DNA of 64,000 bases from NCBI RefSeq assembly GCF_055900595.2, contig NZ_CM148325.1; one strand, given 5' to 3'. The first letter of the stretch is position 1, and every line of letters starts with the position of its first letter. This document shows positions 1,037 through 34,256 of this stretch, piece by piece. Below the pieces are notes generated by a model. It worked only from the letters and a program-made list of their open reading frames with translations, made no database searches and had not been told where the DNA came from. The position numbers and the translations under genes were made by a program.

Positions 1037-1250
1037 GCTTATAAGACATTTACGCCGCATCTGGCATTCAGTGCAAATGCCAGACGCGACGCTGGTGCGT
1101 CTTATCTGGCCTACTTTGTTGTAATCCATTGAAATAATGGGAATCGTAGGCCGGATGAGGCGTTTACGCCGCATCCGGCATTCAGTGCAAATGCCAGATG
1201 CGACGCTGACGCGTCTTATCTGGCCTACAGATGATTAGTCTTTATCTGCC
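1027..1250. repeat. REP/BIME-type palindromic repeat, about 112-bp unit in two tandem copies; first copy includes the last 10 nt of rcsC
   Basis: gggaatcgtagg…gccgcatc(t/c)ggcattcagtgcaaatgccagacgcgacgctg…cgtcttatctggcctac occurs twice (from about 1027 and 1139); imperfect palindromes typical of REP elements between convergent genes. Confidence 0.8.
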
Positions 1251-4886: not shown

Positions 4887-4979
4887 AAAAAAAACCGGAT
4901 GCGAGGCATCCGGTTGAAATAGGGGTAAACAGACATTCAGAAATGAATGACGGTAATAAATAAAGTTAATGATGATAGC
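4887..4979 (-). ncRNA. micF: MicF antisense sRNA (about 93 nt) divergent from ompC
   Basis: Reverse complement reads GCTATCATCATTAACTTTATTTATTACCGTCATTCATTTCTGAATGTCTGTTTACCCCTATTTCAACCGGATGCCTCGCATCCGGTTTTTTTT, which matches my memory of micF including its terminator hairpin and U-tract. Confidence 0.9.
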
Positions 4980-5134
4980 GGGAGATATTCTAGTTGCGAG
5001 TGAAGGTTTTGTTTTGACATTCAGTGCTGTCAAATACTTAAGAATAAGTTATTGATTTTAACCTTGAATTATTATTGCTTGATGTTAGGTGCTTATTTCG
5101 CCATTCCGCAATAATCTTAAAAAGTTCCCTTGTA

Positions 5135-11320: not shown

Positions 11321-12979
<1,659 letters not shown>

Positions 12980-12984
12980 TGATG

Positions 12985-13460
12985 TGCCACATCCGGCATG
13001 GTATGCCGGATGTGGCGTATGCTGATAAGACGCGCCAGCGTCGCATCAGTCAACCGGCTCGGGCGTTAGATCGGATGCGGCGTAACCGCCTTATCCGACC
13101 TACGGGGTGGAGCACTTCACAGCGGTGTAGGCCTGATAAGACGCGCCAGCGTCGCATCAGGCTACCGGCTTGGGCGTTAGATGTCGGATGCGGCGTGACC
13201 GCCTTATCCGACCTACGGGGTGGAGCACTTCACAGCGGTGTAGGCCTGATAAGACGCGCCAGCGTCGCATCAGGCAACCGGCTCGGGCGTTAGATGTCGG
13301 ATGCGGCGTGACCGCCTTATCCGACCTACGGGGTGGAGCACTTCACAGCGGTGTAGGCCTGATAAGATGCGTCAGCGTCGCATCAGTCAACCGGCTTGGG
13401 CGTTAGATGTCGGATGCGGCGTGACCGCCTTATCCGACCTACGGGGTGCCACACTTCACG
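12985..13460. repeat. Tandem REP/BIME array, four copies of an about 113-bp unit
   Basis: Unit gcctgataagacgcgccagcgtcgcatcag…gggcgttagatgtcggatgcggcgtgaccgccttatccgacctacggggtggagcacttcacagcggtgtag repeated from about 13017, 13131, 13245 and 13357 with a few substitutions. Confidence 0.9.
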
Positions 13461-13465
13461 GCAGT

Positions 13466-13954
13466 TTAGCGGACTACCGCGTTGTCAATTTTCTCTTCCG
13501 CCTTCCAGATGCGGTATTTCACATCTACATTGTCTGGCGTATACACCACGATCGGCAGCTTGCTGTTGTAACGCAGCATTCCAGCATCGCCCAGATACGC
13601 GGTGACAAATTTCTTCTCTTTCTTGCCATCCGGGCAGGCCATCATCGTGGAAACCGGCGAGCTAACTTTATCAAAGACGTAATAATCATAGCCCCAGCCT
13701 TCCAGCGTTTTGCTTTCCAGCTTCCCGCCGAGACGATGCAAATTGCAATCGACTTCCAGCGTCTGACCGATTAACAGTTCTACTTTCAGGGTAGATTCAT
13801 CTTCTTGCGGGGTTAACTGAATCACCTGACGCTTCATGCCTTTTTCAGCTTGCGGATAAGGCGCGATTTTTTCCAGTGGCTGGACGCTCTCTGCCGCCCA
13901 GGCGGAAGTGGTAGCGAAAGCGGCAAACAATACTGCAGGTAGAATGGTCTTCAT
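13466..13954 (-). CDS. eco: Ecotin (periplasmic serine protease inhibitor), 162 aa
   Basis: Signal peptide [20 protein letters not shown]; ecotin-like sequence …[20 protein letters not shown]…; position between mqo and napF. Confidence 0.95.
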
Positions 13955-14231
13955 TGTTGTATTCCCTTCGTCATTTATAGGTTTTCACCGATGATGTCGC
14001 TGAAGGTTAACATATTCATCAGATTTATTAATTTGCTTTATGAATAACTAAAAGAACATTCAGACAATTTTACCTTCTCTTTTAGTGTTAAATTCTGAGG
14101 AGTGGTAAAGCCTTGAGAAATATCTCTGGCGAATTAATCGCTATATAAATATGTTTATAACCATTTGAAATGTGAGCAAAAGCCCGTTTTTGCCACTCTT
14201 CCCACCACTCTTTTGATCCTGCTACAGGTTT

Positions 14232-26544: not shown

Positions 26545-26670
26545 GTGCGCTTTGTTTATACCAGATGCGGCGTAAACGCCTTATTCAGCCTACAAAATCG
26601 TGCGAACTCAATACATTGCTCGATCCGCGTAGGCCTGATAAGCGTAGCGCATCGGGCAGTTTTGCGTTTG
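26545..26670. repeat. REP elements between ccmH and narP
   Basis: …ccagatgcggcgtaaacgccttattcagcctac… and …cgcgtaggcctgataagcgtagcgcatcgggc… REP-like imperfect palindromes. Confidence 0.75.
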
Positions 26671-30375: not shown

Positions 30376-30452
30376 TGGTCGGCACGAGAGGATTTGAACC
30401 TCCGACCCCCGACACCCCATGACGGTGCGCTACCAGGCTGCGCTACGTGCCG
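30376..30452 (-). tRNA. proL: tRNA-Pro (anticodon GGG)
   Basis: Reverse complement reads CGGCACGTAGCGCAGCCTGGTAGCGCACCGTCATGGGGTGTCGGGGGTCGGAGGTTCAAATCCTCTCGTGCCGACCA; cloverleaf with anticodon loop CATGGGGTG and 3' CCA. Confidence 0.95.
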
Positions 30453-33737: not shown

Positions 33738-33778
33738 TGAATGCCAGATGCGGCGTGAACGCCTTATCTGGCCTACAA
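33738..33778. repeat. REP element
   Basis: atgccagatgcggcgtgaacgccttatctggcctac. Confidence 0.75.

Positions 33779-33863: not shown

Positions 33864-34256
<393 letters not shown>

Follow-up and report, generated by a model that had tools for sequence, protein, structure and literature searches.

What occupies the intergenic spacer between mqo and eco, and does the number of repeat units found there carry any biological weight? In the window analysed here, by which we mean the whole 64-kb stretch of DNA, this spacer measures 486 bp (12980–13465) and lies between mqo (malate:quinone oxidoreductase; 11333..12979, + strand), a 548-aa ORF with its TAA stop codon at 12977–12979, and eco (ecotin; 13466..13954, − strand), a 162-aa ORF. 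The gene names are those that RefSeq gives in a strain with 100% identical flanks, and the K-12 annotation concurs; both genes are annotated in NZ_CP098223.1 and in K-12. They are convergent, and a repeat array lying wholly inside the spacer, and thus extragenic, sits at their meeting point, with mqo transcription running into it from one side and eco entering it from the other. The element is very probably the eco-mqo BIME-2 of Escherichia coli in the form of a four-unit allele, which is the best joint explanation of what was found, including the gyrase, RNA and copy-number steps proposed below. The locus itself is already known: it is a textbook BIME-2, catalogued, with gyrase cleavage mapped in K-12, and the finding is real but ordinary.

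Tandem Repeats Finder returned a single array at 13022–13459 with a period of 113, 3.9 copies, 95% matches, 0% indels and a score of 785, and a repeat search placed four copies in register at spacings of 111, 113 and 113 nt. The four-copy tandem array of about 113 bp that the initial annotation had placed in the mqo-eco spacer is thus borne out. Its proposed start at 12985 is too early, for that span takes in a separate palindrome (12986–13016) outside the 113-bp period; the array itself, beginning at 13022, stands. The same annotation spoke of three near-perfect copies, and pairwise comparison reduces these to the two inner units, u2 and u3, which are 98.1% identical. The first unit, u1, matches u2 and u3 at 94–96% and carries a 2-bp deletion and GTAT for GTAG, and u4 shares 90–92% with the remaining units, so that identities among all units range from 90 to 98%.

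Read on the + strand, each unit opens with a Z2-type REP, which a linker of about 20 nt separates from an inverted Y-type REP, and closes with a linker of 23 nt. The Z2 REP, GTAGGCCTGATAAGACGCGCCAGCGTCGCATCAGGC, is represented by Z2 no. 2 (13127..13162, +), which has 0 mismatches to the Z2 pattern and folds at −20.5 kcal/mol; Z2 no. 3 lies at 13240..13275 (+). Z2 no. 1 (13017..13051, +) is degenerate, with GTAT for GTAG and its closing GC pairs gone, and Z2 no. 4 (13353..13388, +) has three substitutions, 1 core mismatch and a weaker stem (−13.0 kcal/mol on the + strand, −9.7 on the − strand). The Y REP, GTCGGATGCGGCGTGACCGCCTTATCCGACCTAC when written on the + strand, occurs in − orientation at 13071..13103, where a 2-bp deletion affects the foot (CTAC on the + strand), and at 13183..13216, 13296..13329 and 13409..13442, the second of the four Y REPs having 0 mismatches to the Y pattern and folding at −19.1 kcal/mol. 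Pattern search found 0 mismatches in each of the four Y cores and 0–1 in the four Z2 cores, and the GTAG/CTAC foot is intact on seven of the eight REPs, Z2 no. 1 being the exception. All eight palindromes, four Z2 and four Y, are therefore canonical types in alternating orientation, in agreement with the REP/BIME composition claimed earlier. The Y pattern has 8 matches in the 64-kb window against 0.01 expected from a shuffled window, and the Z2 pattern 6 against 0.00, so the REP matches of the array are not due to chance. Elsewhere in the window, isolated Y-type REP cores with 2 mismatches each occur at 26563–26586 and 33746–33769, and a second BIME-2-like element (Z2, Y, Z2) occupies 1081–1225.

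Two kinds of linker separate the REPs. The head-to-head linker between Z2 and Y, TACCGGCTTGGGCGTTAGAT, recurs at 13052–13070, 13163–13182, 13276–13295 and 13389–13408. The tail-to-tail linker between units, GGGGTGGAGCACTTCACAGCGGT, is identical at its three occurrences (13104–13126, 13217–13239 and 13330–13352), and a terminal variant, GGGGTGCCACACTTCACGGCAGT, at 13443–13465 adjoins the eco stop codon. CT dinucleotides occur in the linkers, alongside the GTAG feet. On the mqo side, the palindrome that precedes the array, hereafter the lead palindrome, reads GCCACATCCGGCAT-GGT-ATGCCGGATGTGGC (12986..13016), with 14-bp arms that are 100% complementary and a 3-nt loop. It begins 6 nt 3' of the mqo stop codon, and each of its arms resembles the head half of a Y REP.

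BIMEs of the first class combine Y with Z1, occur as a single copy and have a long L linker, often with an IHF site, while those of the second combine Y with Z2 in multiple tandem copies with short, variable linkers and a copy number that differs between strains (PMC3333891); BIME-2 elements hold two to twelve Y/Z2 units each (Chiapello et al., PMC1187871). The mqo-eco array has the Y and Z2 composition, the alternating orientation with GTAG/CTAC feet, the conserved tandem copies, the extragenic position and the strain-variable unit number of a BIME-2, and it further serves as an IS1397 target in strain KV7. With BIME-1 (RIP/RIB) it shares the construction from REPs, a Y unit among them, and the extragenic position. 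However, a BIME-1 exists in single copy, and its long L linker, which contains an IHF site, joins Y to a Z1 REP, whereas here Z2 alone accompanies Y, the linkers are 20 and 23 nt and the units are in tandem. Neither a Z1 REP nor an L linker is present in the array, and the IHF core WATCAANNNNTTR, which has 5 matches in the 64-kb window against 2.4 expected, has none within 12980–13465. A BIME-1 or IHF-binding element is thus ruled out by the lack of Z1 and of the IHF core motif, the short linkers and the tandem arrangement. The suggestion that the array could bind IHF is accordingly not upheld here, as this is a property of the BIME-1 L linker (PMC3333891).

The unit number at this locus varies widely among strains. 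A query of 700 bp of mqo joined to 700 bp of eco/yojO was searched in 5,426 complete E. coli genomes, and 5,372 of them have at least 80% of this joined flank query in one place. Matches were taken at even steps down the ranking, giving 59 usable rows that form a systematic sample and are not phylogenetically independent. One unit, in a spacer of ~149 bp, was the state of 35/59 genomes. Three units (~376 bp) and four units (486–491 bp) were found in 2/59 each, five units (601–607 bp) in 7/59 and six units (715–717 bp) in 13/59. The one-unit state therefore accounts for ~59% of the sample, multi-unit arrays for ~37–41% as judged from the 59 genomes and from a junction 60-mer, and the four-unit allele of the window for ~3% of the 59 sampled complete genomes. 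The earlier expectation of a strain-variable copy number holds, with 1, 3, 4, 5 and 6 units among these genomes and six in K-12. The 60-mer, which crosses from one unit into the next inside the array, gives an independent estimate in agreement with the sample: its full length was found in 2,007/5,426 genomes (37%), with a median of 5 and a maximum of 11 matches per positive genome. In the 40 genomes listed, its matches are confined to the eco 3' end and to intergenic sequence without annotation. The listed K-12 strains show 5 places, as many as their six-unit array has internal junctions; on these grounds the tail-to-tail linker is very likely specific to the mqo-eco locus.

Alignment of the alleles showed differences of whole units and conserved ends. 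A four-unit allele is also found in the unrelated strain EC130. Beyond E. coli, Escherichia sp. E1V33, of a cryptic, non-coli clade, carries three units at mqo-eco (421–753 of the extracted locus), and an exact internal-junction 30-mer, a pattern that is blind to one-unit alleles and diverged linkers, was found among species-representative genomes in this strain only. In E1V33 the first Z2 foot, GTAGGCC, is intact, two units have CCTGG for the Y foot CCTAC, and the tail linker differs. The five-unit array of AHM8C212RI (NZ_CP104613.1; 701–1306 of the extracted locus) begins with a unit of the type seen in the one-unit allele, followed by six extra bases, ATTTTA, as at the eco-stop junction of that allele, where CACAGCATT is directly followed by TTAG. 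This arrangement suggests either an ancestral single unit to which the other four were joined on the downstream side or a recombinant chimera. The lead palindrome was recovered in all ten alleles examined. It is imperfect in several of them, with a GG insertion in its right arm (ATGCCGGGGATGTGGC) and in one allele also a C-to-T change in the left arm, and such imperfections would argue against strong selection on the lead palindrome.

In one further strain, KV7 (NZ_LT795502.1), IS1397 is annotated at ~1139–2572 of the extracted locus, where it interrupts the loop of Z2 REP no. 4 of the array and is flanked on either side by GTCA. This insertion sequence was reportedly described by Bachellier et al. 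in 1997 as specific for REP loops. The KV7 insertion exemplifies such a REP-loop-specific element with the mqo-eco array as its target.

The array would grow and shrink by entire 113-bp units, and replication slippage or unequal recombination between near-identical units is the likely route. The REP-associated transposase TnpA-REP possibly assists; an in-vitro model exists in which this Y1 transposase (RAYT) cleaves and recombines REPs with a 5' GTAG (PMC3333891), and the sequence alone makes slippage or recombination indistinguishable from TnpA-REP activity. TUM22762 (NZ_CP188130.1), a K-12 derivative labelled "laboratory developed", has five units and lacks one of the identical units u5 and u6 of K-12 MG1655, which would reflect either unit loss on laboratory timescales or a collapse in assembly. 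Gene conversion may in addition homogenise short patches. Compared with its sister Z0117EC0005, the window has 1,400 bp of identical flanks, the same 486-bp spacer and 4 base differences, all in the last unit, at 13368 and 13449–13451. The adjacent triplet at the latter position is CCA in the window and GAG, the inner-unit variant, in Z0117EC0005, and it looks like a short conversion tract between units. The flanks at 12280–14165 match 13/5,421 E. coli genomes at ≥99% and nearly all others at 95–99%, and the lineage of the window is thus sparsely sampled; the best match was isolated from a dog in South Korea. The stems vary hardly at all among 40 units drawn from 10 alleles, with one compensated change of a C-G to a T-A pair; the other stem changes are single transitions that give G-T on either strand, with no interpretable strand bias. 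Covariation is consequently uninformative about selection on the stems, whose conservation could reflect recent copying instead.

Gyrase cleavage at this locus has been mapped in K-12. A literature search on mqo, ecotin and REP returned nothing relevant, and the locus surfaced through supplementary Table DS3 of the Topo-seq study of Sutormin et al. (2019, PMC6379681), which lists a BIMEs2 element at 2308874–2309528 of 654 bp, eco>-<mqo. The gyrase cleavage sites recorded for the K-12 element number 11 with Cfx, 7 with RifCfx, 2 with Micro (microcin B17) and 5 with Oxo (oxolinic acid), placing the K-12 array among the BIME-2 elements with most cleavage sites. Six in-vivo gyrase cuts at the K-12 eco-mqo locus are credited to Espeli and Boccard (1997) as cited in the same table. 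Gyrase cuts y-type REPs far more often than z2, and its BIME-2 signal rises under rifampicin, that is, when transcription is blocked (PMC6379681). The gyrase binding proposed in the initial annotation is thus documented for the orthologous K-12 locus, with 6 cuts and 11 Cfx sites. By extension from K-12, the array in the window would be a strong, transcription-independent site of gyrase binding and cleavage, cut mainly in its Y REPs and located where the positive supercoils of two convergent genes would meet. Six cuts for six K-12 units suggest roughly one strong gyrase site per unit, hence perhaps four here compared with six in K-12.

At the RNA level, the array is expected to be highly structured on both strands. 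Folding of a 521-nt region gave z = −6.7 (+) and z = −7.4 (−) relative to shuffles, individual REP hairpins ranged from −13 to −21 kcal/mol on the + strand and from −10 to −21 on the − strand, and RNAfold assigned the lead palindrome −26.3 kcal/mol on either strand. The spacer contains no intrinsic terminator (G+C hairpin plus T run) on either strand, the lone match in the scanned region being inside mqo at 12706, so what the mqo and eco transcripts would both encounter are the stable REP hairpins. General REP roles include attenuation of read-through and protection of 3' ends (summarised in PMC3333891 and PMC12306157). By analogy, read-through is most likely dampened by these hairpins and 3'-to-5' exonucleases are halted at them, so that the 3' ends of the mqo and eco mRNAs would be both set and protected. 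REPs located <16 nt from a stop codon have been reported to hinder terminating ribosomes and depress translation (Liang et al. 2015, as related in PMC12306157). At 6 nt from the mqo stop codon, the lead palindrome lies inside this range, and any effect of it on terminating ribosomes is speculative.

Several other explanations of the array have to be weighed against the four-unit BIME-2. The count of four might be an artefact of assembly, the true array being longer or shorter; since u2 and u3 share 98% of their 113 bp and the ~440-bp array is longer than a short read, a collapse is technically possible. We consider it very improbable here, because the independent complete genome Z0117EC0005 has 100% identical flanks and the same 486-bp spacer with 4 bases different, private substitutions in each of the four units give them a unique order, and the unrelated EC130 has four units as well; the matching spacer of Z0117EC0005 by itself weakens the concern. 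Genuine repeat-protein genes, for their part, have next to no chance of being what the array is. Open frames of 104, 78, 157 and 69 aa (+) and 106 aa (−) do exist, as had been noted at the outset, where they were rightly called spurious: all five lack a Pfam match and go unannotated in the sister genome and in K-12. Moreover, differences in unit number between strains break or alter these ORFs, the longest is an antisense overlap with eco, and no sigma-70-like promoter from which they could be expressed was found in the 486-bp spacer. The weightiest alternative, possible but on balance doubtful, is that the array is a neutral, selfish or passively copied repeat whose length changes by slippage or through TnpA-REP, with gyrase cuts and hairpins as by-products that affect neither fitness nor mqo and eco. 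Most sampled genomes (35/59) manage with one unit, from which it follows that multi-unit arrays are dispensable; the unit number ranges freely from 1 to 6, with up to 11 junction matches per genome; TUM22762 lost a unit without evident consequence; an IS1397 insertion is tolerated; and the stems have almost no compensatory substitutions. However, all 10 alleles examined, cryptic-clade Escherichia included, keep the lead palindrome and one unit or more, the locus is conserved (5,372/5,426 genomes by the flank criterion given above), the K-12 array ranks high in gyrase cleavage, and neutrality of copy number is compatible with a function of the element as such.

The remaining alternative concerns RNA. 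The Rfam model naRNA4 (RF02564, also CssrE) matches all four Y-linker-Z2 units on the − strand, the eco sense, at 13020–13100 (60.9 bits), 13130–13213 (71.8 bits), 13243–13326 (75.2 bits) and 13356–13439 (59.3 bits). Three of the four exceed the gathering score of 59.5 bits, and the last is 0.2 bits short; on the + strand, the mqo sense, scores of 34–42 bits are below it. Other gathering-level Rfam matches in the window are the MicF sRNA at 4887–4980 (−, 116.8 bits), a tRNA at 30379–30452 (−) and the L25 ribosomal-protein leader at 34170–34195 (−). naRNA4 derives from REP325, a six-unit BIME-2 between yjdM and yjdN, and acts with HU in nucleoid condensation (Qian et al. 2015, PMC4550694, whose main text does not mention mqo); what counts in naRNA4 for condensing DNA is reported to be secondary structure and not sequence (PMC4550694). 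Read in this light, the array could be a cluster of naRNA4-like RNA genes, in which eco read-through would yield HU-binding RNAs that bridge cruciform DNA and condense the nucleoid, and the shared architecture of tandem Y-linker-Z2 units with a constant spacer speaks for it, as does the importance of structure over sequence. We nevertheless regard it as unlikely. Genuine REP325 units score 95–111 bits, far above the 59–75 bits at mqo-eco; in the Rfam alignment the head-to-head linker exceeds the naRNA4 consensus by a 7-nt insertion, and neither linker has the sequence of its REP325 counterpart; and the spacer has no promoter-like site from which naRNA-like transcription could start. In addition, the unrelated BIME-2-like element of the window scores 81.6 bits at 1149–1225 (+), above every mqo-eco unit, so the model is unspecific to REP325, and a naRNA4 match is, on these scores, a signal of BIME-2 units in general and not of a specific RNA gene.

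The four-unit BIME-2 allele thus remains the preferred reading, and its consequences are mostly practical. The spacer should be labelled as REP/BIME-2 and its internal ORFs should not be called, and beyond correct annotation the importance of the locus is little. As a minority allele with unit-specific substitutions, the four-unit array is usable as a lineage marker, and the population figures, together with the unit loss in TUM22762, the patchy conversion between sister strains and the IS1397 insertion, provide a baseline for possible BIME-2 dosage effects on gyrase loading or on the stability of convergent transcripts. Any dosage effect of the four units is hypothetical. The gyrase, transcript-end and mRNA-stability roles assigned to the array are taken from K-12 or from work on REPs at large. 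More ambitiously, the array might, alongside REP325, give rise to naRNA4-like RNAs, or it might be a strong gyrase site of variable dosage, with the unit number tuning HU- or gyrase-mediated chromosome organisation or mqo and eco expression. We think this quite unlikely; if it held, a common copy-number polymorphism (1 unit in most strains, 4 here, 6 in K-12) would be phenotypically relevant.

Set beside known systems, the array resembles REP325 with its naRNA1-6 in having tandem Y-linker-Z2 units and a constant spacer, and both loci have six units in K-12. REP325 is, however, a different locus, between co-directional genes, whereas the mqo-eco array lies between convergent ones. The period is 100 nt in REP325 and 113 nt here, the head-to-head linker ~11 nt compared with ~18–20 nt, and the between-unit spacer 17 nt compared with 23 nt, the two spacers being unrelated in sequence; the Y foot reads GTAGGCCGG in REP325 and GTAGGTCGG at mqo-eco. 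The closest counterpart is the eco-mqo BIME-2 of K-12 itself. MG1655 has six units in a 714-bp spacer where the window has four in 486 bp, substitutions are scattered over the units, unit 1 of the window has its 2-bp deletion, and the mqo and eco flanks are ~96% identical. Common to both are the position between convergent genes, the lead palindrome, the Y and Z2 REPs, the linkers and the 113-bp period.
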